In this document: positions 5,653-39,623 of the stretch, in pieces
Layout: each line of letters starts with the position of its first letter
How positions within the stretch are numbered: position 1 is the stretch's first letter
DNA from: a virus
Lineage: Duplodnaviria; Caudoviricetes
Virus record (IMG/VR): IMGVR_UViG_3300031994_000006
Location: 64,001-128,000 of that record
DNA length: 64,000 bases
Strand: one strand, 5' to 3'
The notes under the pieces: generated by a model
What the model was told of the DNA's origin: nothing
What the model saw: only the letters and a program-made list of their open reading frames with translations
The model's database searches: none
Position numbers and translations under genes: made by a program

Positions 5653-6096
5653 ATGAGACTCGACAGGATTTATACCCAGATAACCGAGGCGTTCAAGGCG
5701 GGCAACAGGGCACGCAAGAAGGAAGCTGTCCAGGATGCGGCCGTCATGCCGGACAGTCCCGTGGACGAGGATCTCCGGGATCTCGTCAACGATTTTATGT
5801 TCAGGACAAGCGTGGAGGCCTGCATAGAGACCAACGGCTGCGACAAGTCCAAGCTGACAATCAGCGGCGACAATTCACAGATCATCGTCCGGTTTATGCT
5901 CCCTGGCGAGAACAAGAAATGTTTTATCCTGATATATCCGGCCGAAAAACATGTCATACTGCACGGCGGCAAGGTGCAGGGAATCAAAAAGATTGATTTT
6001 GACAATGACGGCGATTTTACCCCCAAGGTGAACCTGATGGTCAACATGATGCACTACGTCGAAATGCTTATCGGAACATACAAAGAAGAAGTGTAA
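5653..6096 (+). CDS. EAFxAGNRARKKE-tagged protein (putative internal head protein)
   Basis: MRLDRIYTQITE-AFKAGNRARKKEAVQD; ATG at 5653 follows a late promoter box. Confidence 0.75.
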   Translation: MRLDRIYTQITEAFKAGNRARKKEAVQDAAVMPDSPVDEDLRDLVNDFMFRTSVEACIETNGCDKSKLTISGDNSQIIVRFMLPGENKKCFILIYPAEKHVILHGGKVQGIKKIDFDNDGDFTPKVNLMVNMMHYVEMLIGTYKEEV

Positions 6097-6130
6097 AACG
6101 TACACTTAAAGTTGATATATGTCAAATAAT

Positions 6131-6170
6131 AAGGCCTGATTCAGTTTCTGCGGCTCTGAATCAGGCCTTT
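6131..6170 (+). terminator. hairpin terminator
   Basis: Perfect 14-bp inverted repeat aaggcctgattcag...ctgaatcaggcctt. Confidence 0.7.
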
Positions 6171-6268
6171 AAAGCGCCCTGAAACGTTAAATATCCAGAA
6201 CGGCGACTGAACGGCCGGTTCTTTACGGGGCCGGACGATAGCCGAGAAAAGAAAAGAGAAAGAAGAGT

Positions 6269-6361
6269 ATGAGAGTTATCAGGAAAATGCTGGGTTCGCT
6301 CGGCCGCGGCTGGAAAGAGGCCGCAAAGCTGATGGCTCCGCCCGCGATAGCCGGGATGTAA
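6269..6361 (+). CDS. small peptide (30 aa)
   Basis: ATG after a purine-rich tract (agaagagtATG) matching the context of 6479. Confidence 0.35.
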   Translation: MRVIRKMLGSLGRGWKEAAKLMAPPAIAGM

Positions 6362-6364
6362 GCC

Positions 6365-6460
6365 ATGACTGTTTTGATTGTTATTACGATAGCGGCGTTC
6401 GCCGCATCGGTGTGGACGCTTACGGGGATTCGTATAAAAGAACCCCGTGGGCATAAATAA
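6365..6460 (+). CDS. small hydrophobic peptide (31 aa)
   Basis: MTVLIVITIAAFAASVWTL..., one putative transmembrane segment; tightly packed between neighbours. Confidence 0.35.
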   Translation: MTVLIVITIAAFAASVWTLTGIRIKEPRGHK

Positions 6461-6478
6461 AAAAGAAAGGAAAAGAGT

Positions 6479-6868
6479 ATGAAGAGAATTATCATGACGG
6501 CCCTGATGGCCGTTGCGTTCATGTCCGCGATGGCGGATACCGAGAAAGAGATGTCAAGGGAGGAGCTTGCGTCCGCCTATGACATGAGCGTCAGCTACAG
6601 GAGCCTTGACAGGGCGCTTGAGCTGACACAGGATCAGGCCGAATATATGCACATGGCATACGACCTTTTCCGGAAGCAGATGGAATGCGCCGGAATGTGC
6701 TCCGGCAAGGCGTCGCGTGATGCGATGACCTCCAACGCGATCAGGTCGCATGTCGGCATCATCAGGCCGGTCCTTGATCAGAGGCAGTACCGCAAGTACC
6801 TGACACTGCTCAATACGACGCTCCGTAACAGGAATATCGACGCGGCCGGAAACAATGACAGGAAATAG
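6479..6868 (+). CDS. secreted/periplasmic helical protein, Bacteroidota-like
   Basis: Signal peptide MKRIIMTALMAVAFMSAMA; LELTQDQ and YRKYLTLLNTTLRNR motifs. Confidence 0.75.
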   Translation: MKRIIMTALMAVAFMSAMADTEKEMSREELASAYDMSVSYRSLDRALELTQDQAEYMHMAYDLFRKQMECAGMCSGKASRDAMTSNAIRSHVGIIRPVLDQRQYRKYLTLLNTTLRNRNIDAAGNNDRK

Positions 6869-6928: not shown

Positions 6929-7651
6929 TCAAAGCCATCCCCATTGTATCATCCTGGTGACGGTCTCTTCATACGTTATTGAGCCGTTCAGGCCGAACTT
7001 GTATTCCGTATTACAGTACCCGCATCCGGGATCCTTGAACGTGTCATGCACGCACATTCCGTGCTGCTCAAGCGGTTCGATAAGGTGCTCGAATATCTCG
7101 GTCTGTTTGAGGTCGGCTATGAACGACACCATCTCCTCCCTCATCATCGGCGGGCATTCCTTGAACACGACCAGCTCGAGGTTCGAGTCGACGAAGCACA
7201 GTGCATCGACCTGACCGGCCCTGTGCTTGTTGCGTCCCTTCCTTTTCCATTCGGCGAAGTCCGTCACGGAGTCGATGCTGTCGAACGTTATTTTCCTGGT
7301 GACCCAGCTGCCGACGCACGCGCTGGTGACGGTCTTCGGTATGTTCAGCACCTCTGCGAGGTTGTCGCCCCTTATCACAAGCGTCCTGAGTCTGTCGAAT
7401 CCCATCTGCGAGAAGTCGAACGTCAGCAGATCGGCATCGTCGCCCTTCTCGTCGAACGACAGGTCAAGGGTTTCGCACTTCTTCATGTCGCTGAGCCTGA
7501 CTATGCCGGAACGCTCCATCTCATGCTTTATCTGGGGATCCGGCCATGCAATCAGGGGATCCACGGAATTCACCGTGTCCTGCGCGGATTCCTGTTTCCT
7601 TGCCCTGTTTCCGGCCCTGAAGGCCTCGTTGAAGTCGAATTTTCTCCTCAT
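6929..7651 (-). CDS. EAFxAGNRARKKE-tagged protein (putative internal head protein)
   Basis: MRRKFDFNE-AFRAGNRARKQESAQD; the following PLIAWPDPQIKHEMERSGI resembles the starts of polyprotein modules 4 and 7. Confidence 0.75.
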   Translation of the reverse strand: MRRKFDFNEAFRAGNRARKQESAQDTVNSVDPLIAWPDPQIKHEMERSGIVRLSDMKKCETLDLSFDEKGDDADLLTFDFSQMGFDRLRTLVIRGDNLAEVLNIPKTVTSACVGSWVTRKITFDSIDSVTDFAEWKRKGRNKHRAGQVDALCFVDSNLELVVFKECPPMMREEMVSFIADLKQTEIFEHLIEPLEQHGMCVHDTFKDPGCGYCNTEYKFGLNGSITYEETVTRMIQWGWL

Positions 7652-7652: not shown

Positions 7653-7659
7653 ATAAATA
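7653..7659 (+). promoter_or_regulatory. late promoter-like ATAAATA
   Basis: Intergenic, 21 nt upstream of the ATG at 7681. Confidence 0.5.
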
Positions 7660-7680: not shown

Positions 7681-8130
7681 ATGTCATATTTACTTTCCGA
7701 TATATTCCGGCAGCTCTGTGAAGCCTTCAGGGCAGGCAATGCCGCCCGTAAGAAGGAATCTGCACAGGATTCCGTCGACGGAGGCCGTGTCATACCGCCG
7801 TCGGAGGTGCTGAAGCAGTATTTCGGTGATAAGATGGACGACCTGAGGACCGTCAAGATAGACATTGACGGACGGATCAGGGAATACCTGACGACATATG
7901 TGGAGGGATATACGGACGGCCGTAATATGGTCAGGATCTCGTTCATTGACGAATGGCCCCTGATTTCCGGCGATACATTCCTTCTCAAGATGTACTATGA
8001 CAACGGCGACAGGGATGATCTCCATTTCGGCGATGAAATCGACAATGCCGATATATTGCTCTGTGTGTGCGACGAGATTATGGACGCCGTCGACGGATCG
8101 GAGGATGAAACTGAAGAGGATGACGAATGA
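7681..8130 (+). CDS. EAFxAGNRARKKE-tagged acidic protein (putative internal head protein)
   Basis: MSYLLSDIFRQLCE-AFRAGNAARKKESAQD. Confidence 0.75.
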   Translation: MSYLLSDIFRQLCEAFRAGNAARKKESAQDSVDGGRVIPPSEVLKQYFGDKMDDLRTVKIDIDGRIREYLTTYVEGYTDGRNMVRISFIDEWPLISGDTFLLKMYYDNGDRDDLHFGDEIDNADILLCVCDEIMDAVDGSEDETEEDDE

Positions 8131-14608: not shown

Positions 14609-16549
14609 TTAGAACATGCCAGCGAAGTCCACGTGGAAGGTGATGTACTGGGTCTCAGGATAGAAACCAGTGTCGATAAGAGCGTAACGGCTCTTGATCA
14701 TTACCTTCGGAGCCATGGTGCCCTCAGAGATGATCTTCACAGACTCAGCCATGAGGTAGGGTGCGAACACAACACCGGGCTCATCCTTGCTGCCCTTACG
14801 GCCGACGAGGACACGGGTGTCATTACCAGCCATCAGAGGATCAACATAGACCGTGATACCTGCGACGTTGCCGACAGGATACAGGCTGTTGCCGTTCTGA
14901 GCGACGTTGTTCTCGATCGGAGCCCAGATATTCTGCGCGTTGCTCTGGAGAGCGGTAGCGACAGTAATATTGGTAACAGCGAACGTAGCGCCGCCGTAAC
15001 GACCACGCTGGAGGATCCAGTTGTTGGCGGTGATGAAGTTCATCTGCAGCCTCTGGAGCAGGGTAGCCTGGTTCTCGAAGATGGCCTTGCTGTTCAGGTA
15101 GATGGGCTTGTACGGCATGGAGACGTTAGTCCACTTGCGGTACGTACCGTCTGCGCCGACAGTCGTAGCGTCAGCCTGTGGGATCGCATAGGCAGGAGTC
15201 ATGCCGTTACCGAAGATACCGGCAGTCTTGCTGTCCTCAGCGAACGAGATGTTCAGGTTAGCTACAGAACCCTCAACCTCAGCGAGCTTGCAGTGGTTCT
15301 TCCAGCCGAGAGCGAACAGACGAGAGAGGATGTGACGGTTGATCGTCGAGCTGAGCTCGTTGACACCGGCGTTCTCAATCATCTTCAGCACATCGATACC
15401 CCACTGCTTCTGGAGGTCAGTTACCTGCTCCTGAGTAACAGCGACGGATACCATGATGGTACCTACGGTCACGTTCTTCGTGAACACCTGGAGGCTGAGC
15501 TGACGAGCGTAGCTCATCTCACCTGTACCACGAGACATGGGCTCGTAGAGAACCGTTCCGTCCTGATACGTGCCGTACCAAGGATCCATGTCGTTGACAC
15601 CGGATCCAGTGAAGCCCTGGATCTGATCCTCAAGCATAGAAACCAGACGGGGAGTAGTAATCGTAGCGCCAGCCAGGCTGCCGGTCAGGGCAACAGGACC
15701 AGCGGCGAACTCCTGAGCGAGGGTCTTGGCGCCCTTGACGATCTTCAGGATGGGGTCGCCATCGAGACGGCTCCAGCCGACGAACTCGAGCGTCAGGCCA
15801 TCAGCCTCGTTGAGGACGGTCTCACCGGGAACCAGACCCGCAGCGCGTGCGGCGGCCTTCAGGGCACCTACAGACTTGGCAGAGCCGATAGAGTCGAAGG
15901 AAGCCTTGAACATGTGAGGCAGACCGTAGAGGTCGTTGGGCTTGTTAGCACCGTTGGCGTCCAGATCGTGGAAGTGGTTGACGTTCTGGGTAGCGTCGTC
16001 GTAACCCGGGGTAGAACCGTAGGGCTGCTTCGTTCCGCTGTAGACGTAGTCCATGTAGGGGATTACGCCGGTCGGTCCCTGCATAGGAACGGTGTTGACC
16101 AGGTCGAAGCCGATGGTCTTGGCGGCGACCTTCAGTGCCAGGGGCAGGAGGGCGGGCCACTTGTCACCGGAACCCATCTGGGTGCCGTCAGCCTGATCAG
16201 CGGCGGTCAGGCCGGGAGTGCCTGCGGGAACGGCGTCACCGATGCCGAGGGTGTTGTACAGGGTCTGGTAGGGAGCATACACGCCGCCGACGGTACCGTT
16301 GATACCGGAAGCGTTGTTGAAGTATGCACCGCCGGGGACCTGAGCCTCATTCAGTGAACCGAACGCGCCGTAGCGGGCTGCTACGTTGGCGTTGATGCGG
16401 GCGTTCTCGTTGAGAGCCTGCACGGTGTTCATGGCAATCTGGGCCATGAGGGCCTTCTTGGCGGGATCCTTGACACCGGTAGTGCGCTCAATCATCGCGC
16501 CCCAGCTCTCGGTCAGCGCCTTACGGCTGTTCTTAAGATTACGTGCCAT
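14609..16549 (-). CDS. major capsid protein (T4 gp23-like)
   Basis: DLVNTVPMQGPTG, EQVTDLQKQWGID, NELSSTINRHIL, GVVFAPY, PKVMIKSRYAL; N-terminal LTE/LNE processing-like sites. Confidence 0.93.
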   Translation of the reverse strand: MARNLKNSRKALTESWGAMIERTTGVKDPAKKALMAQIAMNTVQALNENARINANVAARYGAFGSLNEAQVPGGAYFNNASGINGTVGGVYAPYQTLYNTLGIGDAVPAGTPGLTAADQADGTQMGSGDKWPALLPLALKVAAKTIGFDLVNTVPMQGPTGVIPYMDYVYSGTKQPYGSTPGYDDATQNVNHFHDLDANGANKPNDLYGLPHMFKASFDSIGSAKSVGALKAAARAAGLVPGETVLNEADGLTLEFVGWSRLDGDPILKIVKGAKTLAQEFAAGPVALTGSLAGATITTPRLVSMLEDQIQGFTGSGVNDMDPWYGTYQDGTVLYEPMSRGTGEMSYARQLSLQVFTKNVTVGTIMVSVAVTQEQVTDLQKQWGIDVLKMIENAGVNELSSTINRHILSRLFALGWKNHCKLAEVEGSVANLNISFAEDSKTAGIFGNGMTPAYAIPQADATTVGADGTYRKWTNVSMPYKPIYLNSKAIFENQATLLQRLQMNFITANNWILQRGRYGGATFAVTNITVATALQSNAQNIWAPIENNVAQNGNSLYPVGNVAGITVYVDPLMAGNDTRVLVGRKGSKDEPGVVFAPYLMAESVKIISEGTMAPKVMIKSRYALIDTGFYPETQYITFHVDFAGMF

Positions 16550-16907: not shown

Positions 16908-19900
16908 ATGGGAAAAATCGATTTCGATAAGATGAACGAGGCCTTCAAGGCCGGCAATAGGGCGAGGAAGAAGGAGGCCGTACAGGATACGGTCGAATCG
17001 GTCGACAGCATGCAGGCACAGATTAAACTGTTCAAGAAGCAGACCGGTGTAGAACTCGAGATCAGAGACGGACGTCCATATTCTGATAGAGACCTGGATC
17101 TGGAAGGCTGTACCGGACTGACAGGCCTGCCGGTTGGACTGGAGGTTAACGGGTATCTGTACTTGGACGGCTGCACCGGGCTGACAGGCCTGCCTAAAGG
17201 CCTGGAGGTTAACCGGTATCTGTCACTTGAAGGCTGTACCGGACTGACAGGCCTGCCCGACGGGTTAAAAGTCAGAGGAAGCCTGTGGCTGAAAGACTGC
17301 ACCGGACTGACAGGCCTGCCTGACGGGTTGAAAGTCAGAGGAGATCTGGTTCTGACAGGCTGTACCGGACTGACAGTCCTGCCTGCAGGCCTGGAAGTTG
17401 AAAGACTGCTGAATCTGGAAGGCTGCACCGGACTGACAGGCCTGCCGACTGACCTGGTTGTCCGGGGTGATTATATTGTGCACAAGGGCGTGCTGACATC
17501 GTTCTTCAGGAAACTTGGGATACCGGTTGACGACGACGGAAATACAGATGCGGAAGACTGGCGTAGGTGGCAAAAAGCGCACGGATATCTTACAGAGGCG
17601 TTCAGGGCCGGCAACAGGGCCAGGAAGAAGGAATCCTTGCAGAATGATACGGATGCCGTATCCAGATGGCGCATACCGAAGAAGCTCGAGACCATCGACG
17701 ACTGGGAGGCCGCGTTTCTGCTGAACGCCGAGTCGGTCGGTATTACGGCCACATTAAGACAGTCGGATTCCCCGAGCAGTACGACGCGTATCTATAACCT
17801 GTATGTCCGATCAACGGAAAACAATTCCGTCACTTTCTCTGTCGGCATCACGAAGACTGATTTCTATTCGGACAATTCCCCGTTCGGCATAATAATGCGT
17901 GTAATCCTCAAGTTGGGCGCGGCCATCGGTAATGTATCGATGCACCTGGTACCTGTCACGGATGCTGCGAGGAATACGTCAGGGAGGAAAATATTCACGG
18001 ATCTGTCCGCTGCCATGGATTCCGTATGGGAGATAATCAACTATCTCAGGAACAGCAGACATTTAGGACAGGTTCTGAAGAATCCGCTCATACTCGAGCT
18101 TGACTCATCCGACGTCACGATGATCATCGTTGATGAATACCTCAGGTCCGAGCCGGGATGTCCGCTTATCTGGAACCAGAGGGATGAATATCAGGATTTC
18201 CTGACAGACTATGATTCAGAGCTAAGGCGTGCGACCGCCGTCGGACCGTGGATCAACTGGCACGGAGACACCGAGGTGCTGGCCGAGGCCTTCAGGGCAG
18301 GCAACAGGGCCAGGAAGAAGGAGTCGATATCCAGGACGTCGAATATCGTCAGCACCAGGGTACCGTCAATCACAGAGCTCGGCGACATGCTCCTTGATCT
18401 CGGATTCCTGGTCAGGAGCGGTAAGAGGGACTATGCCGAGGAGCGTCAGGAGAAGGCCCCTGAGGAAATCGACAGCATCCTGTTCAGCAAATGGTATACG
18501 CCGTCGGGCAAGGTGCCTGAAAGCGGTCCTATCAAGGAGTCCATGATACTGATGCGCGGCGGATACGGCTTATTGAATAACAAGGAGTCCGGACGGAAAA
18601 TCCCCTATATCAGCGCGGAGATTCATGTCGATATAATGCTGGACGAGGAGACCGTCGGCAAATACAGGCTGAGCTCGCTGTCAAGCAACTGGAGCTCCGT
18701 ACTCAACCTGACGGCATTCAACAAGGTCGACGAGGAGTTCATGCCAAGATTCGCCGTTCTCATGAAACTGTGGAGCGACAGCGACAGGATACTCAAGGGC
18801 CTGTATGACATGACAAAGGACAACCTTCTCCTCTTGAGGGTCGATCAGTACATACAGAAGGCGTATATCCACAGGCTGCTGTGCAGGCTCATGCCGGAAT
18901 TCGAGTCATGGCTATACTCGGAAGGTTTCGGTATCGGCAAGGAGATAGATCCTGACTCATGGCAGTGGCAGGCATCGGGCTGGATCAAGATGCCGGAGAT
19001 ACCGGAGGCGCCGCAGACGCCTGTCAACGAGGCTTTCAGGGCCGGTAACCGCGCACGTAAGAAAGAGACCGTCCGGGACGCTGTACCGGATAATGTGGAT
19101 CCTCCTATCAGGTTCGAGGATCCCAATGTCGAGAAGATATGTCACGGGCACGGCGTCTATACCATTGGCGACGCGGCCGGGATCGAGACGATACAGGGAT
19201 GGTTCGAGATTGACAGCGGCGCGGGTATCGATAATCCGGAAATCGTGAAGTTCAATGAGCTCAGGTACTTTACCGGACTTACGACCATTCCCGCCAATGC
19301 GTTCCTCGAGCAGGAGAAGCTTGAGGAGATTATGATACCCGATAGCGTCACGGTAATCGGTCAGTGCGCGTTTGACTCGTGCAGGAATCTGTCGAAGCTC
19401 GTCCTGCCCGACAGGAACAGCCTGGAGCTCGGTAATGACTGTCTGCAGTCGTGCGACGGACTGGACGAGGTCGTCGTGCCGTCCGGATGGTCCAGATGGG
19501 ATTGCATCCAGAATATGAAGGAGGCGTATGACAATGAACTTATCTGGTACCAGGAGAAAATCGATGACAACCGCATACCGGAGGAGTCAGCCTTCGAGCT
19601 GCTCGATGCGAGACTTGATACGTATTTCACCAACCGTCAGGATACGCTTGACTGCAGATTCTCCGACCTGCTTGACTGGTGGACCGAGGATGACTGTTAT
19701 GATGACGGCCAGGACAATGACGGCGAGGAAATGTCTGAGGCGTTCAGGTCCGGCAACCGCGCCCGCAAGAAGGAGTCCGTCCAGGATACCGTCCAGTCGG
19801 ACGACGCACTTGACGACCGCAACAGGTGCGCCGAGATGATGAAGACCATGCTGACGTCGCCGGCATGCCCGGCCGTAAGGATCATAGGCGATCGGCCCGC

Positions 19901-22900
19901 GGTCGTCGAGAACGCGCCGGCGATAGACCCGGCCGACATCAAGATAAGCGAGCACCTCGGCAATAACCAGGACTATACGCTCGTCGTCCTGAAATGGGAG
20001 GGTGTCGACCAGACCGATCCCGCGCAGAACTTGACATACGTCACGGAGATTTCGTTTTCGGAGGCGACCGACGGATCGGGCCTGCTCATATCGGGCGGAT
20101 GTTTTAATGACGATGATTCGGCAGACTTCTCGCCGCTTCCCGACATGTGTATCAGGGCCGATGCGGAGAATGACGGCCGGCCGAAGCTGTGGGAGCTGTG
20201 CTATGTCGAGGACTGGGAAACCGTGGATCCGGACGGCATGACGTATTCGAAGGTGTCCGTGAACGCGATGGCGGCGGTCGCCGCCGCCGTCAGGCAGATT
20301 AAGGAGCAGGACCGCAGGAAGGATCCGTCGTCGGCCGGCAAGTACCCGGTCGGCGAGGCGTTCAAGGCCGGCAACAGGGCGCGTAAGAAGGAGGCCGTCT
20401 CCGATACGGTACAGGATACCGATACGTTCATAGGCGACGGTATGCCGGCTGACAAGATTATCCCGAATCTATTCCTGAGCGCCGTCAGTACGACACAGGC
20501 GCTGCTCAGGATGCTGGGCAACGTCAATCCGCCGTTCAAGCCTGAGTTCCCAAGCTATATGAAGTGGTTCATTGATATCATAATCTCCATGTATATCAAG
20601 ACCTCGATTTCCTGGCAGCGCAGGATTTCGATCGCGAACGTCAAGGGCAGCCCTGACAGGAACAAGGGACAGGAATTCGATATCATCCTTGAGATGGGAA
20701 TCAGGAAATACCATTTTCTCATAACCCCGGGCAACAAGGAGAACCAGTATGCGGTATGGTTTAAGATGACCGTGCATCTGTTCGACATAGACTTCAATCC
20801 TGATTATCCGGAGCAGTCCGCCGTCCATATAGCGCCGGCCATGAAGTATTTCATTGCCGGATTCCTTGAGGCATACAGGACGTTCTTTGAGGAAAAAGGT
20901 GTGCTCGAGGCGTTCAGGGCAGGCAACCGGGCCAGGAAGAAGGAATCCGTACAGGATACTGTCAATGCTGTCGATGTACCGGTCAGATTCGAGGATCCGG
21001 TCGTCCGCATGTACATGGAGGAGCATGGGATAACGACTTTGTCCAAGGTCGCGACCGCGATATTGCCGATATGGGATGCCGATGAACAGGAAGACTGGTT
21101 CAGGCCTGAGAGGTTCAATGAGTTCAAGCTGTTCACGTCGATAACTCATATCAAGGAATATATGTTCAACGGACAGGAGAATCTTGAGGAAATAGAGCTC
21201 CCGCCTACAGTACAGGCCATCGGATATGGGGCATTCAGATCATGCCTGAGTCTCGAGAACCTTGACATTCCCAATTCATGCAGGGAACTCGGGGAAGACT
21301 GCCTTGCCGGATGCGACAGCCTTGAATATGTTGGTTTCCCGGATTCATGGACCTATGAATACGCGTTCGAGCAGTTCGCCAGGGCATTCAAAGATGATAT
21401 TGAAACCCTGCCCGACATACTTACCTGGAATGATGTCAACTCATGGGATGAGATGCCGTTCCCTGATGCGACGATTACGAACAATTACTATACATTCCAT
21501 CTGTCGGATCTGTTTAAGAAGTTCAGCGACCAGGATACCCTTGAGATGCATGGACTGCTTAATGAGGCCTTCAGGGCCGGCAACAGGGCCCGCAAGAAGG
21601 AGTCCGCCGCCGATACCGCAGAGGGTCCGTTAAAGCAGATTCCGTTTACTGAGAAGGAAATCAGGGACGCCTTCAGGGCGATAATCGACAGTGAGGACAA
21701 TCCCATCAGGAAGAACGCGCAGCCCGGCTATGAGGACAAGATAAAGCCGGCCGCCGTGCTGGCACAGGCCGTCAGTTATTCATGTGAGGCCTTCAGGAAA
21801 CTGTTCAGCCGCGTTATGGCAGGGCCGTGGGGCAAGCTCAAGATTACATGGGAGGAATGGCGGGACGGACGCCGCTGGGGCGGATGGACGGAACTCGGTA
21901 TAGTCAAGGTCATCATCAGCCGGGACGACTTCAAGGACGGCACGCCCGTCAAGGTGTGGAAGTTTTCGCTCAGGATTACCAACGACTTCGAGAACGACTG
22001 GCAGGACAGGTTCGGCGTATTCGCCGGATTCGACGCCGCTGAGAATCTGAACGTCGAAATATACAAGCCTGTTATAGACATATACATCAGGCACAACCCG
22101 TATAAGATATATGTTCGTCAGGCATTCGTCGACGGGCTTAACAGATTCTTCTCATATGAGATCTGGGAGGCTTTCAAAGCCGGTAACAAGGCCAGGAAGA
22201 AGGAGTCCGTCATCGATACGGTCGAGTCGGTCAATGATATACAGACACAGATTGAATTGTTCAGGAAACAGACTTTCGGCATAGAGCTTGAGATCAGGGA
22301 CGGACATCCGTACTTTAACGGAGACCTGGATCTGCGAGGCTGCACCGGACTGACAAGCCTGCCTACAGGCCTGGAGGTTGAAGGAGACCTGGATCTGGCA
22401 GGCTGCACCGGACTGACAGGACTGCCTGCAGGCCTGAAGGTTGAAGGAGACTTGTCTCTGGAAGGTTGTACCGGACTGACTGGCCTGCCGTTTGACTTGG
22501 TTGTCCGGGGTGCTTATATTTTTCATGATGGTATGCTGATACCGTTCTTCAGGAAACTTGGGATACCGGTTGACAAAGAAGGAGACACAGATACAGAAGA
22601 CTGGTGTACGTGGCAAGAAGCTCATGGATATCTTAAAGAGGCCTTTAGGGCCGGCAACCGTGCAAGGAAGAAGGAGTCCGCCGTCGATACGGTCGATTCC
22701 GTCAATGTGAAGATTACGAAAGAGGAGGTTGTCGGATGGTTCAGGGATGCGATAGATTCTGACCGGAATACCATACCGAAGAATGATCCGCATGCCTGGC
22801 CTGCAATGTGCCTTGTCACTGACGCCTTGTTTACAAGGCTTGCCATTGATAAGCTTGTTGATAAAATTAAGGAAAGTGACAGCGGTGTTGTTATAGAGCG

Positions 22901-23219
22901 TGTATCATACGGACAGTTCCGTAATCCTAAAGGGCCTAATCAGTTCGGCAGTAAGACCTTGGGTTTTGTCGATGTAACGGCAGGCTTTAAGGATCGCAGT
23001 TTTTCATGGAGCTGGGAATTTGTAATTACTATTGAAGATTATAAAGGCAAGGAAGATTATTGCTATAAGCTTTATGTCAATTCTCGTGTAAATTCTGAAA
23101 GCCTTTTACCGGGTCCTAAAAATGAACCGTTGGTGACCGTCTATGCAAGACGTACTCCGTATAAGATAGAAGTCAATGAGAAATTCATCGACGGTATTAA
23201 CAGTATATTGAAACAATGA
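16908..23219 (+). CDS. 2103-aa modular polyprotein: 10 modules each opened by EAF[RK][AS]GN[RK]ARKKE; includes LRR and BspA-like LRR modules
   Basis: Motif Glu codons at 16938, 17595, 18285, 19029, 19737, 20355, 20907, 21564, 22167 and 22638. Confidence 0.9.
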   Translation: MGKIDFDKMNEAFKAGNRARKKEAVQDTVESVDSMQAQIKLFKKQTGVELEIRDGRPYSDRDLDLEGCTGLTGLPVGLEVNGYLYLDGCTGLTGLPKGLEVNRYLSLEGCTGLTGLPDGLKVRGSLWLKDCTGLTGLPDGLKVRGDLVLTGCTGLTVLPAGLEVERLLNLEGCTGLTGLPTDLVVRGDYIVHKGVLTSFFRKLGIPVDDDGNTDAEDWRRWQKAHGYLTEAFRAGNRARKKESLQNDTDAVSRWRIPKKLETIDDWEAAFLLNAESVGITATLRQSDSPSSTTRIYNLYVRSTENNSVTFSVGITKTDFYSDNSPFGIIMRVILKLGAAIGNVSMHLVPVTDAARNTSGRKIFTDLSAAMDSVWEIINYLRNSRHLGQVLKNPLILELDSSDVTMIIVDEYLRSEPGCPLIWNQRDEYQDFLTDYDSELRRATAVGPWINWHGDTEVLAEAFRAGNRARKKESISRTSNIVSTRVPSITELGDMLLDLGFLVRSGKRDYAEERQEKAPEEIDSILFSKWYTPSGKVPESGPIKESMILMRGGYGLLNNKESGRKIPYISAEIHVDIMLDEETVGKYRLSSLSSNWSSVLNLTAFNKVDEEFMPRFAVLMKLWSDSDRILKGLYDMTKDNLLLLRVDQYIQKAYIHRLLCRLMPEFESWLYSEGFGIGKEIDPDSWQWQASGWIKMPEIPEAPQTPVNEAFRAGNRARKKETVRDAVPDNVDPPIRFEDPNVEKICHGHGVYTIGDAAGIETIQGWFEIDSGAGIDNPEIVKFNELRYFTGLTTIPANAFLEQEKLEEIMIPDSVTVIGQCAFDSCRNLSKLVLPDRNSLELGNDCLQSCDGLDEVVVPSGWSRWDCIQNMKEAYDNELIWYQEKIDDNRIPEESAFELLDARLDTYFTNRQDTLDCRFSDLLDWWTEDDCYDDGQDNDGEEMSEAFRSGNRARKKESVQDTVQSDDALDDRNRCAEMMKTMLTSPACPAVRIIGDRPAVVENAPAIDPADIKISEHLGNNQDYTLVVLKWEGVDQTDPAQNLTYVTEISFSEATDGSGLLISGGCFNDDDSADFSPLPDMCIRADAENDGRPKLWELCYVEDWETVDPDGMTYSKVSVNAMAAVAAAVRQIKEQDRRKDPSSAGKYPVGEAFKAGNRARKKEAVSDTVQDTDTFIGDGMPADKIIPNLFLSAVSTTQALLRMLGNVNPPFKPEFPSYMKWFIDIIISMYIKTSISWQRRISIANVKGSPDRNKGQEFDIILEMGIRKYHFLITPGNKENQYAVWFKMTVHLFDIDFNPDYPEQSAVHIAPAMKYFIAGFLEAYRTFFEEKGVLEAFRAGNRARKKESVQDTVNAVDVPVRFEDPVVRMYMEEHGITTLSKVATAILPIWDADEQEDWFRPERFNEFKLFTSITHIKEYMFNGQENLEEIELPPTVQAIGYGAFRSCLSLENLDIPNSCRELGEDCLAGCDSLEYVGFPDSWTYEYAFEQFARAFKDDIETLPDILTWNDVNSWDEMPFPDATITNNYYTFHLSDLFKKFSDQDTLEMHGLLNEAFRAGNRARKKESAADTAEGPLKQIPFTEKEIRDAFRAIIDSEDNPIRKNAQPGYEDKIKPAAVLAQAVSYSCEAFRKLFSRVMAGPWGKLKITWEEWRDGRRWGGWTELGIVKVIISRDDFKDGTPVKVWKFSLRITNDFENDWQDRFGVFAGFDAAENLNVEIYKPVIDIYIRHNPYKIYVRQAFVDGLNRFFSYEIWEAFKAGNKARKKESVIDTVESVNDIQTQIELFRKQTFGIELEIRDGHPYFNGDLDLRGCTGLTSLPTGLEVEGDLDLAGCTGLTGLPAGLKVEGDLSLEGCTGLTGLPFDLVVRGAYIFHDGMLIPFFRKLGIPVDKEGDTDTEDWCTWQEAHGYLKEAFRAGNRARKKESAVDTVDSVNVKITKEEVVGWFRDAIDSDRNTIPKNDPHAWPAMCLVTDALFTRLAIDKLVDKIKESDSGVVIERVSYGQFRNPKGPNQFGSKTLGFVDVTAGFKDRSFSWSWEFVITIEDYKGKEDYCYKLYVNSRVNSESLLPGPKNEPLVTVYARRTPYKIEVNEKFIDGINSILKQ
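17094..17471 (+). repeat. 6 x 63-bp coding tandem repeat (21-aa LRR, LxLxGCTGLTGLPxGLxVxGx)
   Basis: Recurrent tg(c/t)accggactgacaggcctgcc at a 63-nt period. Confidence 0.9.
22326..22514 (+). repeat. 3 x 63-bp coding tandem repeat (same 21-aa LRR)
   Basis: Paralogous to 17094-17471. Confidence 0.9.
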
Positions 23220-32680: not shown

Positions 32681-32710
32681 GAAATCCCGGGGAAATCCCC
32701 GGGATTTTTT
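32681..32710. terminator. bidirectional terminator
   Basis: aaatcccgggga-aa-tccccgggattt followed by a T run. Confidence 0.85.
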
Positions 32711-33815: not shown

Positions 33816-34012
33816 CGTTGACGGTTCAATAAGTACTCACCGAGCACGGACATGAAGAATATGATATATCCTGCAGTACCTATCAGGGTCCATCCGTTAT
33901 AAGTATTCATGGCCAGCATGAACAGGTCGAGTATGAACAGTAAGACCGACAGCCTGAACAGGAACGGATATCTTCTGATTCCGTATCTCCAGTATCCTAA
34001 AATAAAATCCAT
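33812..34012 (-). CDS. small membrane protein
   Basis: 66 aa with two hydrophobic segments. Confidence 0.65.
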   Translation of the reverse strand: MDFILGYWRYGIRRYPFLFRLSVLLFILDLFMLAMNTYNGWTLIGTAGYIIFFMSVLGEYLLNRQR

Positions 34013-34031
34013 ATCTTAAACTGTATTGTAA

Positions 34032-34409: not shown

Positions 34410-34849
34410 GATCTTGCCTTATTGATCATCGTATATATGGCGGTATTCATGATATTCTCGAGACGCTGACGGACGCGGTCCATATTCTCAGGCTCGACGC
34501 GGCTGAAATCGAAATCGTAATAGAAGTCCTTGAATACATTGGCGAGCTTCCCGGACAGCTTGACGTATGCCTCGTCCTCCTCCTGCTGGATACGCTGGCT
34601 GTATTCCCAGTCGGTCTCCTCGTGGTACCGGCAGATGACGGCCGTACGATCGACGCCGCCTCCGTTGCCGTAGTGATCCTCCTCACACTCCTCCTCGTCG
34701 ATATCGAGGTTGATGTCCTTCATATCGAGCTCGGGATGCTCGGCCATATACCTGGCGTAAATCTTCGCGGCCTGATTCTCGGCCGGATACAGGACGATGT
34801 TCTCACTGTGTAGCACCTCCCTGACTCTTTTTCTGTTTCTGTCTACCAT
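34406..34849 (-). CDS. hypothetical protein
   Basis: 147-aa acidic ORF, ATGA-coupled. Confidence 0.7.
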   Translation of the reverse strand: MVDRNRKRVREVLHSENIVLYPAENQAAKIYARYMAEHPELDMKDINLDIDEEECEEDHYGNGGGVDRTAVICRYHEETDWEYSQRIQQEEDEAYVKLSGKLANVFKDFYYDFDFSRVEPENMDRVRQRLENIMNTAIYTMINKARS

Positions 34850-34861
34850 ATTTTAAAATAA

Positions 34862-35104
34862 TTATTCGACTTTATTTTTTAAAACATAATCCCAACTCAC
34901 GCAACGAGTCATTACTTTATCATAAGGGTTGTATCCATTATGTTTAAATACAGTTACATTCTTATATCCTATTCGTTCCAACTCCTTTGCTCTAATTTTT
35001 GCTGAATCGGAATTAGTATAATAACCCATAGCAGATGCCCAAGCCCCTAACGGTTCTCTTACATCATGTGATAATTCATTAAATGCTATAAAATAATTAA
35101 TCAT
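34862..35104 (-). CDS. AT-rich hypothetical protein
   Basis: 80-aa ORF with visibly lower GC than its flanks. Confidence 0.65.
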   Translation of the reverse strand: MINYFIAFNELSHDVREPLGAWASAMGYYTNSDSAKIRAKELERIGYKNVTVFKHNGYNPYDKVMTRCVSWDYVLKNKVE

Positions 35105-35931: not shown

Positions 35932-36477
35932 TCATCTCCCGACAGGGAACATCATGTTCCAGCACCTGTCAAGCACAGCCGTCAGTGTGCGGACGCCCTT
36001 CTCTGATCCGAGGTCGGCAGCGGACATCTTGATATACGATTCAGACTCATTCCGTCCGTCGCCGTCGAAGTAGAGCCAACCGCCCTTCTCCTCATCATCC
36101 CGTTCATAACAGAAGCCGAGCCTGACCGTGTCGTCGTCCATGCGGTCAATCTCCATGGCGACGGAACCTCCCAGTCTTGTATTCCTGTCGCGGCCGGTCA
36201 GGTAGATGTTCTCCTCCGACTCAAACCTGCCGTCTGTCTCCAGATCGGACCAGACCGCCTCGGGCAGGTAGAAGTCGTCCGCCTTGTACGGAATACTCTT
36301 GTCCGTATTGCGCTTCTTCAAGGCCCGCTTGACGCCGTTGCACCAGGAGTATACGGCGGCCTTCAGATCCATGGGGACGGATTCGACCGCGTCGGCGGCG
36401 GATTCCTTCCTGCGGGCCTTGTTGCCGGCCTTGAAGGCCTCCCGGATATCCGGGGCTATTTCATCGAGCCTTTTCAT
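35932..36477 (-). CDS. EAFxAGNRARKKE-tagged protein (putative internal head protein)
   Basis: MKRLDEIAPDIRE-AFKAGNKARRKESAAD. Confidence 0.75.
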   Translation of the reverse strand: MKRLDEIAPDIREAFKAGNKARRKESAADAVESVPMDLKAAVYSWCNGVKRALKKRNTDKSIPYKADDFYLPEAVWSDLETDGRFESEENIYLTGRDRNTRLGGSVAMEIDRMDDDTVRLGFCYERDDEEKGGWLYFDGDGRNESESYIKMSAADLGSEKGVRTLTAVLDRCWNMMFPVGR

Positions 36478-36845
36478 AATCTTAAAATATTATTTTCATA
36501 ATTTTTAAAAATCTCTTTATTTTTAAAAATATTTAAAGGTTTTAGTTCTATTAGATTATCTTCTTTTCTAATAATATGATATAAAATTACTGGACAAATT
36601 TCTTCTTTAAACAATTTCCAACTTAATTTAGGATATTGATCAAAAGCTCCTATTTGCTTTATAATAGATTTACCAGTTGAAGGCTCATTAATTTTATAAC
36701 CTGGTTGTAATTCATTTTTATAATAATTATATACAACTTTCTGAGATTTTTGAGATGAAAATAAAATAAATTTATAATCATTCCAATTAATTTCAGATGA
36801 ACAATCTAACTCAAATTCATGAGGTCCGCTAAAAGAAAATCTCAT
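36474..36845 (-). CDS. very AT-rich hypothetical protein
   Basis: 123-aa ORF; two TATAAATA boxes upstream (36846-36853, 36861-36868, minus strand). Confidence 0.65.
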   Translation of the reverse strand: MRFSFSGPHEFELDCSSEINWNDYKFILFSSQKSQKVVYNYYKNELQPGYKINEPSTGKSIIKQIGAFDQYPKLSWKLFKEEICPVILYHIIRKEDNLIELKPLNIFKNKEIFKNYENNILRL

Positions 36846-36895
36846 TATTTATAATGTTTTTATTTATATAATCAATATATCTATAGTGAATTAAA

Positions 36896-38812
36896 TTAAC
36901 GAATTTGATAACAGTCTGGTAATATATCCCAGAGCTCCTGACGCTCGGTCATGTCCAGGCCTATCTCCTGTGCGATGCGATCATCGTCCCAGTCGTCCGC
37001 AAAGCCCGTGTCGGGCCAGGGGATGTACTTGATGGCATGACATACATGAAATCCATTTCTGAAGGCCTTGACATATACACGGACGAAGTCGGTCATCATA
37101 TAGTGATAGAAATGAAGGGCCTCCTTCTGTGTATTAAACGCAACGAATATACCTGAAATCTTAAAATCGGTATTTTGTTGTACAGGTATACCTATATTTT
37201 TAAACATCAGAGTATCATAATCAGGTGAACCTATATGTTTGTTCTGATCAGTCAGCTTGACAGTCCATTTGTTAATAAATCCTGAATTGTCTTTAATACG
37301 TTTGGCACCACCACGACCACCGTCACCATTTGTAAATGCATAATTATTAAGTCTATTATTTCCGAGTCTCTTACCCTTCTCAATGACAGTTTTCAATATT
37401 GAGTGTCTGTCAGCCTGACTGAAATCTTCTACATTTTCATATGACTTTTTATCTTTACCATCATAAGCAACAGTAAGGCCTGATCCTTTGACGATTCTGA
37501 ATATACCGAGAGTCTGTCCAACATTCGCTCCCTCACCTTGGAACAGCTCAAGTGCGTTCGACAATATGTTCGCGTCACAGTGTCTGTCCTCAAGTATCCT
37601 AACACGTTTGGAGTCGTTCAGGAACCAGGTCGCCGGCTGGATGCTGACGACGGTATCAGCGAGCTCAATCGCCTTTGACAGGAACATCTCGTCGAGGTTC
37701 TGTATAGACGTGGACGTGGACGTCTTCGGGGCCGTATACGGCGGATTCATTATGATATAGTCGAATTTCATGTCTCTCAGTTTTTCGGGAATTTCTGTAT
37801 CGATGCCTTTGATCCAATTTAGGAAACCCGGCACATTAATTATATGCTTAAATTTACACTTAGTCCTATATTCAAGCTGACTTTTTATTGCAATTCTGGC
37901 ATCTCCTGTAAGACAAATGCCCCAGAATCCGTCAGCAATAGTCTGACGATCGATTCCCTGTTCACAGAATTTGTTACAAAGCCTATTGAATATAGTCTCA
38001 ATAATATTCGCATCTTTACAAGCAAAGTCACAGATTTCAACCAGTCCATTATGGTTCAAATCCATATGATTATAATTACGGATACGTCCGAGATTCATTA
38101 TAGGAATTATTTTCTCACTAACAACCTTTTCAGGTGTTGAGACATATTTCATCTCAACAATCCGCTCATCAGTATATCGTCCAAATCTGTTATAAAAGAT
38201 ATGACGAAGTAAATTGGCCTCTATCGATCCAGGCTGGAACTCCATATCAAGATCCCTTGTATATCTCGAATCATAATGCTGAATCATTCCAGACATCTGA
38301 TCTATCGTAATCTGGAGTGACTTGATGAACTCATCAAGGCCTCTGTGAGGAAGACTTTCGATATACTCAGATCCACGACCAAGCTTCTCATCTGAATAAT
38401 TATCTTTTCTATTTCTGGTTGTCTCAGTATTCATTACACTTGCGCATAATTCACGGATGACATCATCAATATGTCCTGTATAATTGGCGCCGAGCGTCAC
38501 ATATCCATACAAATCGTCATTCAGATCATAACCGCGCCAGTCCTCATTGTATGTCGATGAATAGCGAGACTTACATGCCTCTATACACTCATCCTCAGTC
38601 GCATCGGACGGACAATGGGTAAGACCGATTTTAATTTTCTCGACTGTCGGCATCATCTCATAGTCATGATTACAGTATGCCTTCGGCGTTATGAAATAAA
38701 TCAGGGTATCGTCCTTAGCCTTTTTGGCTGGACGGCCTTCTCCGCGTACAGTCCTCTGTTCCATCAGTTCCTGGTACACATCCGACAGTCTGTAGGGCAT
38801 TTTCTCTTCCAT
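36896..38812 (-). CDS. Eco57I/type IIG-like adenine DNA methyltransferase with putative N-terminal GIY-YIG/T5orf172-like domain
   Basis: KFDYIIMNPPY (motif IV), SIQPATW, CDFACKDANI (motif I-like); IYFIT...KIKIGLT near the N-terminus; start placed at ATG 38812, downstream of the promoter box. Confidence 0.8.
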   Translation of the reverse strand: MEEKMPYRLSDVYQELMEQRTVRGEGRPAKKAKDDTLIYFITPKAYCNHDYEMMPTVEKIKIGLTHCPSDATEDECIEACKSRYSSTYNEDWRGYDLNDDLYGYVTLGANYTGHIDDVIRELCASVMNTETTRNRKDNYSDEKLGRGSEYIESLPHRGLDEFIKSLQITIDQMSGMIQHYDSRYTRDLDMEFQPGSIEANLLRHIFYNRFGRYTDERIVEMKYVSTPEKVVSEKIIPIMNLGRIRNYNHMDLNHNGLVEICDFACKDANIIETIFNRLCNKFCEQGIDRQTIADGFWGICLTGDARIAIKSQLEYRTKCKFKHIINVPGFLNWIKGIDTEIPEKLRDMKFDYIIMNPPYTAPKTSTSTSIQNLDEMFLSKAIELADTVVSIQPATWFLNDSKRVRILEDRHCDANILSNALELFQGEGANVGQTLGIFRIVKGSGLTVAYDGKDKKSYENVEDFSQADRHSILKTVIEKGKRLGNNRLNNYAFTNGDGGRGGAKRIKDNSGFINKWTVKLTDQNKHIGSPDYDTLMFKNIGIPVQQNTDFKISGIFVAFNTQKEALHFYHYMMTDFVRVYVKAFRNGFHVCHAIKYIPWPDTGFADDWDDDRIAQEIGLDMTERQELWDILPDCYQIR

Positions 38813-38835
38813 ATTACTTTGTTTTATATTTAACT

Positions 38836-38900
38836 TTACTGCAAAGATAGGCATTTCCGACGAAAATAAAAAATCCTGCAGCGTCTTTCTGCAGGATTTT
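38836..38900 (-). promoter_or_regulatory. terminator hairpin fused to a Bacteroidota-type promoter (copy 2)
   Basis: aaaatcctgcag...ctgcaggatttt hairpin; minus strand TATCTTTGCA matches the TAnnTTTG -7 box at 38842-38849. Confidence 0.7.
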
Positions 38901-38921
38901 GCATTATTTTGTTATATCCGC

Positions 38922-39623
38922 CTATTTCTGTCTGCCGAGGCTATCCGGCCAGATCATAAACGTGTCCGTCAATATGAAATACGTATCACATCCGTATTCG
39001 TCCAGGAACTTCTTGAACATGCCCGCAAGCTCCCGGGGATTGCGGTACAGGTCCCTGGCCTTGTAGATGTATGCCGAGACCGTGGGCCAGTACATATAGT
39101 TTTCCGATGGATCCGTCTCGTTCCACCTGTCATATACGTCGTCCTCACCGTACTTCTCTTCGAACTCCTCGAACGTCATGAACCTTCCGGTATTGTCATC
39201 GTACCGGTAATTCTCCGACGTCTTGTATATGTCGTCCATCTCATAGGCGAAAGTCTTGCCGAAGAACCAGTTGCTGAAGCTTCCATTCTGTATATAGTTG
39301 TCGGGAATTAGGACAGCCATGAACTTATCGCCGTCGATGGTGTTCACCTCGTCGAGTCCGCTCCTCTCCATGAGATCCTGTATGTCCTCGGGTACGCCGG
39401 TGCACCTTCTCTTATTAGAGTCCTCATATATCTCCAGGGTGCCATTCTTATTTCCGTTGTAGTACGTGACGAGCGCCACGTGGAACACCATGTTCGCGTA
39501 GTCGGTCACATCGAAGGCCATATCCTGGACGGCATCCTGTATGGACTCCTTCTTACGAGCCCTGTTGCCGGCATTAAACGCCTCCCACAGAGGCCTGTAT
39601 ATATCCGAAAGTCTAACATTCAT
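38922..39623 (-). CDS. EAFxAGNRARKKE-tagged protein (putative internal head protein)
   Basis: MNVRLSDIYRPLWE-AFNAGNRARKKESIQD. Confidence 0.75.
   Translation of the reverse strand: MNVRLSDIYRPLWEAFNAGNRARKKESIQDAVQDMAFDVTDYANMVFHVALVTYYNGNKNGTLEIYEDSNKRRCTGVPEDIQDLMERSGLDEVNTIDGDKFMAVLIPDNYIQNGSFSNWFFGKTFAYEMDDIYKTSENYRYDDNTGRFMTFEEFEEKYGEDDVYDRWNETDPSENYMYWPTVSAYIYKARDLYRNPRELAGMFKKFLDEYGCDTYFILTDTFMIWPDSLGRQK

Follow-up and report, generated by a model that had tools for sequence, protein, structure and literature searches.

A conserved peptide behind a short leader probably labels head-carried proteins in a giant Prevotella-type phage

In a giant Prevotella-type phage, a peptide tag of 20-22 residues probably labels proteins that are carried in the head. 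Five stand-alone genes in the window, that is, the whole 64-kb stretch of DNA that was analysed, place this tag directly behind a short N-terminal leader. We lean towards the view that these genes encode precursors of internal head proteins, either cargo or ejection proteins, in which the tag would be retained as a lineage-specific label.

Results

A sequence-only reading of the window had proposed that five dispersed genes share a motif after a leader of 9-14 residues ending in hydrophobic-x-Glu, and the N-termini were found as claimed (Table 1). The motif common to these genes and to a 10-copy polyprotein is E↓AF(R/K/N)AGNxAR(K/R)(K/Q)E(S/A)xxD, the arrow marking the predicted cut. A six-frame regex scan recovered the 15 copies counted before, 10 of them in ORF 16908-23219(+), while the same scan of 50 shuffled windows returned none. 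The genome-wide count that had been suggested was run on the 207,794-bp record and gave 41 copies in 13 genes, which is a lower bound because a 443,820-bp contig also has identical proteins. After the tag was stripped, all five stand-alone proteins were singletons (BLASTP, E ≤ 1e-3), in agreement with the claim that their bodies are unrelated, and none of the five had a match in Pfam, PHROG or NCBIfam.

Table 1. Positions of tagged genes, neighbouring genes and promoter-like boxes in the window.
Feature	Coordinates	Strand	Length	Details
Tagged gene 5653+	5653..6096	+	147 aa	class-A leader 5653-5688 (MRLDRIYTQITE↓AF), tag 5689-5751
Tagged gene 7651-	6929..7651	-	240 aa	class-B leader 7625-7651 (MRRKFDFNE↓AF), tag 7562-7624
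Tagged gene 7681+	7681..8130	+	149 aa	class-A leader 7681-7722 (MSYLLSDIFRQLCE↓AF), tag 7723-7785
Tagged gene 36477-	35932..36477	-	181 aa	class-A-like leader 36439-36477 (MKRLDEIAPDIRE↓AF), tag 36376-36438
Tagged gene 39623-	38922..39623	-	233 aa	class-A leader 39582-39623 (MNVRLSDIYRPLWE↓AF), tag 39519-39581
Polyprotein	16908..23219	+	2103 aa	class-B leader MGKIDFDKMNE, 10 tags; post-cut Ala codons at 16941, 17598, 18288, 19032, 19740, 20358, 20910, 21567, 22170, 22641
Major capsid protein	14609..16549	-		T4 Gp23 type; PF07068, 119.8 bits
Eco57I-type N6-adenine methyltransferase-like gene	36896..38800	-		PF07669, PHROG DNA methyltransferase
TATAAATA box	5641..5648	+		12 nt before ATG of 5653+
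TATAAATA box	39628..39635	-		12 nt before ATG of 39623-
ATAAATA box	7653..7659	+		28 nt before ATG of 7681+, usual distance in the genome

The tag is nearly unchanged in orthologues whose bodies are down to 31-45% identical. Between 7681+ and its orthologue P0036, identity is 79% in the leader, 70% in the tag and 45% in the body, and between 39623- and P0037 it is 65% in the tag and 31% in the body; a search with the 39623- body returned no homologue except itself. 5653+ and P0028 share 12/12 leader residues and 17/20 tag residues, and their bodies are 88% identical. For this gene, the start at 5653 is favoured over the in-frame ATG at 5584 because the preceding gene ends at 5645 and because P0028 begins with MRLDRIY and the same leader occurs in two paralogues. 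An orthologue (P0025) was also found for 7651-, for which Atlas gave a weak LRR-like signal only. The start of 36477- and the stop of a low-GC ORF (36474-36845) overlap by 4 nt. In the AF2 model of 7681+ (pLDDT 64), leader and tag form a single predicted helix (residues 5-29), followed by a linker (29-39) and a small alpha/beta body with an acidic tail; the model of 39623- was unusable (pLDDT 39).

Conservation had been described as strongest after the presumed cut, and this is what the alignment gave: the columns for E, A, F, G, N, A, R and E have an entropy of 0, and most of those upstream of P3 reach 3.3-3.8 bits. P1 is Glu and P1' is Ala in all 40 copies compared, and 37 of them have L, V, M, I or F at P3 (background 0.305; binomial p = 3e-16); in the five stand-alone genes P3 reads I, F, L, I and L, each with Glu at P1. 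This predicted cut-site context fits a T4 gp21-type prohead protease. All 40 copies differ in their 39-nt DNA versions, which shows selection at the peptide level. Codon-position identity among the copies is 0.58 at third positions compared with 0.91 at positions 1 and 2, and the invariant Arg is encoded by four codons. With 40 different DNA versions and low third-position identity, the copies lack the nucleotide-level likeness, silent sites included, that a DNA-level repeat or gene-conversion element would have.

The earlier proposal of a single portable address label, leader plus tag, held for the tag, which sits on unrelated bodies and on a host protein family, but leader and tag turned out to be two separable modules. 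Leaders fall into class A, M..(R)L(D/S)(R/D)I(Y/F)..(L/I)xE, and class B, M..(K)(I/F)DF(D/N)...E; the tag consensus over 20-22 residues is AF(R/K)AGNRARKKES(A/V)xD(T/A)V. A leader scan detected the class-A leader MPYRLSDVYQELME on the methyltransferase-like gene, whose ORF stays open up to 38854, followed by a degenerate basic stretch with no canonical tag. In orthologues of this gene the leader is kept at 100% at 60% overall identity and the basic stretch is variable; the scan also found leader B without a tag on two genes outside the window. These cases make the leader a module of its own, which lends indirect support to its proposed role in incorporation into the prohead core. Conversely, no leader precedes the tag at any polyprotein junction or in the host proteins.

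The polyprotein and the major capsid gene are divergently transcribed, and some polyprotein modules contain BspA-type LRRs (Pfam). In a relative whose capsid protein is 99.2% identical, the tag is that of the present phage and the polyprotein has nine modules, with module gain and loss at the tag borders. The phage encodes a Peptidase_S77 (T4 gp21-type) protease (PF03420, 47.5-50.2 bits, above the Pfam cut-off of 27), and the capsid propeptide carries two clade-conserved hydrophobic-x-Glu sites without the tag, ALTE14↓SW and SLNE68↓A. The gene order is portal (phrog_213), another tagged polyprotein, protease-scaffold; in T4, the counterpart position between portal and protease is taken by the core genes 67 and 68. 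A scaffold-like protein (G000 28723-29364) is very acidic.

A second version of the tag, LGL(S/A)K(K/R)V.K.(H/Y), stands at equivalent places in the sister phage G001 (capsid protein 73% identical), one of them on a cargo module that is a homologue of module 4 of the polyprotein. Both versions share the same charge layout, with a basic half of +4 and an acidic half of -3. The spacing between Glu and tag in G001 is 2 to 5 residues, and the first tag of its polyprotein has no Glu ahead of it. In a more distant relative, G006 (capsid protein 61% identical), neither tag version nor another repeated peptide after hydrophobic-x-Glu was found, and neither tag profile matched any of eight further related records, of which four are Lak-size. 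Since none was found in these nine, either the tag system has a narrow distribution or further versions escaped the search.

The tag also occurs in host bacteria. In a Prevotellaceae HExxH family with 101 representatives, 26 begin with Met followed by this phage's tag at residue 2, and about 25 begin with the G001 version. The host copies start exactly at the predicted P1' residue, which gives independent support for the boundary between Glu and Ala and for the portability of the tag. According to the rule quoted in PMC10052503, Met is removed before Ala or Ser, so that the host N-terminus would equal that of protease-cut cargo. If Met removal alone can give this N-terminus, the need for a leader would be unexplained unless the leader has a role of its own. 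The zinc-site signature of the family, HEMxH...EIEEP, is invariant, and the gene lies next to comM, in a variable island that also has IetA-like ATPases.

The claim that a promoter-like box precedes at least three of the tagged genes applies to 5653+, 39623- and 7681+, with reservations, while 7651- has only TAAATA at -41. TAAATA is the top enriched upstream hexamer (25 genes compared with 1.5 expected), and ATAAATA precedes 20 of 192 genes, which accounts for 20 of its 38 genomic sites and includes the portal, the protease and three of the five tagged genes. The TATAAATA boxes at 5653+ and 39623- may not be promoters because they lie 4 nt from the ATG, compared with the usual -29 to -38. A T4-type late promoter, with TATAAATA read by a gp55-type sigma, would stand at a fixed distance from the transcript start of late structural genes, and here the distance to the ATG is not uniform (-12 as opposed to -29 to -38). 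For 36477-, a box is present only via an upstream 123-aa ORF inside an insert of 19.7% GC, and at this GC content it means little.

Discussion

The arrangement described here suggests how the tagged proteins might reach the head, although cutting between Glu and Ala, packaging, tag retention and the nature of the partner are inferred. By analogy, the leader would act as the capsid targeting sequence does in T4 and bring the precursor into the core of the assembling prohead. The gp21-type (Peptidase_S77) protease would remove it after hydrophobic-x-Glu, and the tag would stay as the new N-terminus on every mature module. There it might be read by a phage-specified partner, be it the acidic scaffold or core, the portal or further tag copies, and would hold, order or release the cargo. 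A phage-specified protein partner is suggested by the lineage specificity of the tag together with host copies that match each version. The retained peptide had been thought to act in DNA binding, ejection or localisation; for the same reasons, plain DNA binding now appears less likely.

Internal proteins IPI-III and Alt of T4 carry a capsid targeting sequence that is cut by the prohead protease gp21, as described in PMC9026906, PMC9958956 and PMC5694885, and residues 8 and 10 of this sequence direct processing (PMC9026906). The parallels extend to a short N-terminal leader (10-20 residues in T4, 9-14 here) with a hydrophobic P3 and Glu at P1, to its presence on unrelated, fast-evolving cargo, and to the combination of a gp21-type S77 protease with a Gp23-type capsid protein. 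As T4 has the enzyme Alt, so the cargo here includes an enzyme-like protein, the methyltransferase-like one. In T4, however, the signal lies entirely in the leader and nothing is common to the mature proteins, whereas here the 20-22-residue peptide after the predicted cut is the most conserved part, most of the presumed cargo is strung into polyproteins with as many as 10 modules, leaders come in two classes, and the putatively retained peptide also occurs in host bacteria. Searches of the five proteins in Pfam, PHROG and NCBIfam gave no homology to T4 IPI, IPII, IPIII or Alt or to characterised cargo; the likeness is one of mechanism, not of descent.

Other giant myophages offer a further parallel. 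In phiKZ, 201phi2-1 and SPN3US, many head-internal proteins, ejection and inner-body proteins among them, are cut after x-x-Glu by a gp21-related protease, and the SPN3US paralogues gp53 and gp54 have an identical 15-residue N-terminus and bodies that are 34% identical (PMC5694885). The motif given in the sections of PMC10052503 and PMC5694885 on such processing is (A/S/G)-x-Glu, with propeptides mostly of more than 100 residues that are removed; these sections describe no shared retained tag, and a word search of the SPN3US paper PMC10052503 returned no mention of a polyprotein. Processing of this type is not matched here, as P3 is taken by L, V, M, I or F and the leaders have 9-14 residues. 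Phage P1 packages the DarB methyltransferase-helicase and other anti-restriction proteins in its head and delivers them with the DNA. Head-carried enzymes including a DNA methyltransferase are thus common ground with the Dar system, in which loading nevertheless follows an ordered Dar/Hdf chain without a common peptide tag and protease cut site. Encapsulin cargo-loading peptides are short, conserved and movable, and one such peptide suffices to bring unrelated cargo into a shell of the HK97 fold. The peptides differ in being usually C-terminal, in lacking a link to a protease cut, in binding the shell protein directly and in belonging to bacterial compartments rather than viruses.

Several other explanations of the tag have to be weighed against that of a retained label. 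It could be a self-associating sticker, in which basic and acidic halves of different copies pair up with no separate receptor, so that polyproteins and single tagged proteins would condense into an inner-body-like mass in the prohead. The two-half charge layout in both tag versions, the multivalency of polyproteins with many copies and the helix that AF2 places, with moderate confidence, over the leader-tag stretch would all suit such a mass, which a tagged host protein could join; mutual compatibility would also explain uniformity within and divergence between genomes. We nevertheless regard this explanation as unlikely: it is pure inference, and the very acidic scaffold-like protein could be the partner instead. 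Slightly less credit still is due to the idea that the tag serves the prohead protease solely as an extended recognition or docking site on the prime side, where it would make cutting efficient, with no later role. In this phage the tag always follows the predicted scissile bond directly, and efficient cutting would be needed at every polyprotein junction. Yet the clade-conserved capsid and protease-scaffold sites have no tag, and together with the variable Glu-tag distance in G001 this indicates that the tag is not needed for cutting; moreover, the first tag of the G001 polyprotein lacks a preceding Glu, and the host tag at residue 2 has no cut site before it.

That the label has nothing to do with capsids, and serves as an address for another phage machine or compartment or as a handle for recognition by the host HExxH protease, with the host N-terminal copy as an autoinhibitory pseudo-substrate, seems to us improbable. 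The presence of the label in a host family with an invariant zinc-site signature, the location of the host gene among IetA-like ATPases beside comM, and an AAA ATPase gene that ends 8 nt before 5653+ would be in line with it. It is harder to reconcile with tagged polyproteins that lie within the head gene module and adjoin the capsid gene, and with a cut-site grammar of the protease type that in T4 acts inside proheads (PMC9958956). Very improbable, finally, is a second cut that would free a basic 12-mer (AFRAGNRARKKE) to neutralise packaged DNA like the small internal peptides of other viruses. The basic half does end with Glu in 40 of 40 copies, the peptide has a net charge of +4, and there are at least 41 copies per genome; but the second Glu, with Lys instead of a hydrophobic residue at P3, falls outside the grammar of the first cut and the capsid sites, conservation extends about nine residues past it, and a generic DNA counter-ion would need neither lineage versions nor host copies.

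The presence of the tag on host proteins might have nothing to do with capsids. A bolder reading extends the retained label to the host and is, in our view, tentative and rather doubtful: the tag alone would be a sufficient lineage zip code by which any protein could be loaded into heads in this megaphage group, and Prevotella hosts would put it on a zinc protease that wrecks the progeny. Hosts would swap the N-terminal label among homologues to match the phage lineage that threatens them, and the labelled protease would be recruited to heads under assembly or to the cargo. If true, this would be immunity by forging the virus's cargo label.

The tag is a conserved peptide that heads mostly unrelated protein bodies

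Reading the translations confirmed the N-termini that the sequence-only reading had described for five stand-alone genes (5653+, 7651-, 7681+, 36477- and 39623-), each with a 9-14-residue leader ahead of the tag. A six-frame scan recovered all 15 tag copies proposed for the window, ten of them in a single polyprotein ORF, and none in 50 shuffles, which rules out a chance origin. Counted genome-wide, as had been suggested, the tag occurs 41 times in 13 genes of the whole record, five of which are polyproteins. The strongest conservation does lie after the Glu, over 20-22 residues with the consensus AF(R/K)AGN(R)ARKKE(S)(A/V)xD(T/A)V. P1 Glu and P1' Ala are invariant at these sites, and P3 is L, V, M, I or F in 37 of the 40 copies that match the strict pattern used for codon and site statistics (background 0.305, p = 3e-16). 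These 40 copies represent 40 different DNA versions. Identity among them is 58% at third codon positions and 91% at first and second positions, and the invariant Arg is encoded by AGG, CGT, CGC and AGA. Because all versions differ and third positions vary, selection acts on the tag peptide and not on a DNA repeat; a DNA repeat or gene conversion as the origin of the tag is ruled out by the freely varying silent sites.

The protein bodies proved mostly unrelated, in line with the earlier claim. After tag stripping, an LRR family of 11 members and two pairs are the only groups among the 41 modules of the record; the other 26, with all five stand-alone bodies among them, are singletons. None of the five stand-alone proteins matched Pfam, PHROGs or NCBIfam, and ESM Atlas, body-only homologue searches and AF2, applied to one or two of the five bodies, were uninformative. 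A SAM lyase-like assignment of 39623- was discarded since the structural likeness was weak (TM 0.34, poor model). The exact-tag DNA pattern had no match in IMG/VR, the polyprotein region none by blastn against GenBank phages, and we found no description of the motif in the literature. Ribosome skipping of the 2A type was rejected: it would be pointless behind a leader of 9-14 residues in single genes, and it is not known in bacteria.

Leader and tag are separate modules

The leaders fall into two classes. Class A, M..(R)L(D/S)(R/D)I(Y/F)..(L/I)xE, is found on 5653+, 7681+ and 39623- and in a looser form on 36477-, while class B, M..(K)(I/F)DF(D/N)...E, is found on 7651- and the polyproteins. 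The class A leader is similar to the ten-residue T4 capsid targeting sequence, in which residues 4 and 7 serve targeting and residues 8 and 10 processing (PMC9026906). Leader and tag are separate modules: three genes have a leader without the canonical tag (Table), and every internal polyprotein junction has the tag without a leader. Orthologues of the methyltransferase-like gene among these three are 100% identical in the leader and 60% overall, and the basic stretch behind the leader varies. In an AF2 model of 7681+ (pLDDT 64), leader and tag form one helix (residues 5-29), followed by a flexible linker and an alpha/beta body.

Table. Coordinates of features in the window, the whole record (G000) and related or host contigs
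Feature	Sequence	Positions	Strand	Remark
AAA+ ATPase gene	window	4614-5645	+	stops 8 nt upstream of tagged gene 5653+
129-aa ORF	window	6479-6868	+	between two tagged genes
Major capsid protein, T4 Gp23 type	window	14609-16549	-	
Ten-tag polyprotein	window	16908-23219	+	
Low-G+C stretch	window	36474-36895		19.7% G+C
Eco57I-type methyltransferase-like gene	window	36896-38800	-	starts MPYRLSDVYQELME, leader without canonical tag
Untagged class B gene	G000, outside window	26953-27522	+	MDRNFDFD... and hydrophobic-x-Glu site; adjoins scaffold and protease genes; ATAAATA box 13 nt upstream of ATG
Untagged class B gene	G000, outside window	174741-175571	+	MDFDFD... and hydrophobic-x-Glu site
Peptidase_S77 (T4 gp21) domain	G000	31264-31608		above Pfam's cut-off
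Portal-protease polyprotein	G000	31749-34967	-	
Nine-module polyprotein	L050	10001-15727		phage with 99.2% identical capsid protein
HExxH (zinc-protease-like) family, ~350-400 aa	L036	8001-9155		proteins P0044-P0144 (family)
HExxH family	L037	6001-7188		
HExxH family	L038	5689-6750		

Tagged polyproteins lie beside head genes, and some tagged genes follow a promoter-like box

The window, positions 64001-128000 of a 207,794-bp record from an uncultured virus (54% G+C in the record), also contains genes for a baseplate wedge protein and a tail sheath of 1120 aa. Contigs of 250-550 kb and 27% G+C, in our reading Lak-type Prevotella megaphages, encode capsid proteins with 57% identity to that of the window. 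For these uncultured phages, annotation is missing from most genes. The 233-aa product of 39623- and the methyltransferase-like protein recur letter for letter on a contig of 443,820 bp. The IMG/VR record is therefore a fragment; the full genome is probably about double its length, and the CheckV completeness of 76% looks too high.

The Peptidase_S77 domain makes up the N-terminal portion of a protease-scaffold-like ORF of 766 aa. Genes are arranged here as portal (phrog_213), four-tag polyprotein, protease and a very acidic 213-aa protein; in T4, the core genes 67 and 68 occupy the stretch between portal and protease. The ten-tag polyprotein and capsid genes are adjacent and divergent. The first 121 residues of the portal-protease polyprotein form an untagged module with a GNAT acetyltransferase-like motif, a match below the Pfam cut-off (E = 0.009).

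Among hexamers upstream of genes, TAAATA shows the strongest enrichment (25 genes vs 1.5 expected). ATAAATA occurs 38 times on the two strands, 20 times at most 60 nt ahead of a gene start. The usual form of the box, CGATAAATA(A/C)C at -29 to -38, also precedes portal and protease. A role as a 'late' promoter is plausible. A box had been reported upstream of at least three tagged genes, which stands for 7681+ (usual form) and for 5653+ and 39623- (TATAAATA at -12); 7651- has no box, and for 36477- boxes occur only before a 19.7%-G+C insert. This stretch contains a 123-aa ORF and two TATAAATA boxes, sits between the methyltransferase-like gene (41% G+C) and 36477- in a 54% genome, and looks like a recent foreign insert; contig L052 has a 419-nt gap without a called gene at the matching position. 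The 129-aa ORF between two tagged genes begins like a signal peptide (MKRIIMTALMAVAFMSAMA) and is preceded by an ATAAATA box at -26.

Predicted cargo and tag versions differ between related phages

A profile of the 15 window tags, run against 1.84 billion representatives, matched only 44 proteins. In orthologues of the five genes the leader and tag are kept and the bodies drift: in one (P0036) leader, tag and body are 79%, 70% and 45% identical, in another (P0037) tag and body 65% and 31%. The L050 polyprotein has nine modules, compared to ten in the window; eight modules can be clearly paired, with bodies 58-87% identical. L050 has one new module and lacks two, and the break-points fall exactly at tag borders. 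The turnover of the predicted cargo is far faster than that of the shell.

The sister phage contig G001 (147 kb, capsid protein 73% identical) has no copy of this phage's tag. It carries at least 15 copies of hydrophobic-x-E|S-x(1-4)-LGL(S/A/G)(K/R)(K/R)V.K.(H/Y)...D, in polyproteins and single genes and behind the same KFDFD leader. The two tag versions are of equal length and have a common +4/-3 two-half charge layout. In G001, the G001 version sits on a homologue of polyprotein module 4, a predicted cargo module. No orthologues of the five genes were found in G001; the one family in common is that of polyprotein modules 4 and 7. Among other related records, profile A1 had no match in G002-G005 (364-673 kb) and profile A2, for the other tag version, none in G002-G010. 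A de novo search for repeated peptides after hydrophobic-x-Glu recovered the tags in the whole record and in G001, and in G006 it returned transposase-like paralogues only and no cargo tag. G006 (L039-L048) is a 191-kb relative with 33% G+C and a 61% identical capsid protein; it has six paralogous genes of ~470 aa, transposase-like in look, and a long collagen-like Gly-x-y repeat protein.

Members of a host protein family begin with phage tags

Three matches of the tag profile (P0042-P0044) have no relative in the phage, and P0044 is encoded on a bacterial contig next to comM, fur and fecCD. Homologues of this HExxH family occur on 121-kb and 85-kb Prevotellaceae and Prevotella contigs and have the invariant signature YIHEMxHR...EIEEPxAEF; neither single-sequence nor profile searches gave a match in Pfam, NCBIfam, PADLOC or PDB. 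This phage's tag is present on 28 of 101 cluster representatives, in 26 of them from residue 2, and about 25 begin with the G001 version (e.g. MSNLGMASKVKKKFEGTDSIDNI vs the phage's KKHEGTDSIDNV). The remaining representatives have other N-termini, such as MSFTxKV and MPGEGNNN..GLGLxGR, which may correspond to labels of phage lineages outside this sample. The homologues swap their first ~20 residues among themselves. The residue after Met is Ala, Ser, Pro or Gly in all representatives, and these allow Met removal (PMC10052503), so that Met loss would leave the host protein with the N-terminus predicted for protease-cut cargo. The gene, situated in a variable island beside comM, is 40% identical between two syntenic loci with flanks at 77-96%. 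IetA-like ATPases are nearby; an AAA+ ATPase gene also precedes 5653+ in the phage, which may be a coincidence. The host copies support E|A as the natural module boundary and the portability of the tag.

Possible roles of the tag

The reading we consider most likely, with moderate confidence, is that the tagged genes encode cargo of the head interior. The leader would be removable as in T4, and the tag would stay on as a recognition label specific to the phage lineage. The system is a variant of the T4 capsid targeting and internal-protein theme, not related to it by descent: in T4 one leader does the whole job, whereas this phage would combine a removable leader with a retained label. Less probably, the tag is an extended protease site, directly behind the predicted cut as it is. 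The capsid propeptide, however, has two tagless hydrophobic-x-Glu sites, ALTE14|SW and SLNE68|A, kept in 12 relatives (T4 gp23 loses 65 residues in processing; PMC9958956). The site grammar fits the phage's S77 protease, and a site can exist without the tag. Furthermore, Glu and LGL are 2 to 5 residues apart in G001, and this variation places the tag outside the immediate subsites of the protease.

Two other rivals, also less likely, are a self-associating sticker, for which the shared two-half charge layout might be considered, and a label without relation to capsids, to be weighed against the tagged polyproteins beside portal, protease and capsid genes. Release of the tag as a basic peptide by a second cut is unlikely. 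The suggested role of the retained tag in DNA binding is less likely, as the host copies point to a phage-specified partner rather than to DNA.

If the tag is a retained recognition label, it would be readable and would flag dark genes encoding head-carried proteins, probably injected into Prevotella. It would cover at least 41 modules here, with many LRR proteins and an enzyme resembling DNA methyltransferases among them. Phages with 99% identical capsid proteins differ in their predicted cargo cassettes, which come and go at the label borders. Should the label suffice for loading, it would be a possible tool to put proteins into phage heads. The matching labels on the host HExxH family provide a sequence-only link from phage lineages to hosts; they may also reflect a new kind of conflict between host and virus.
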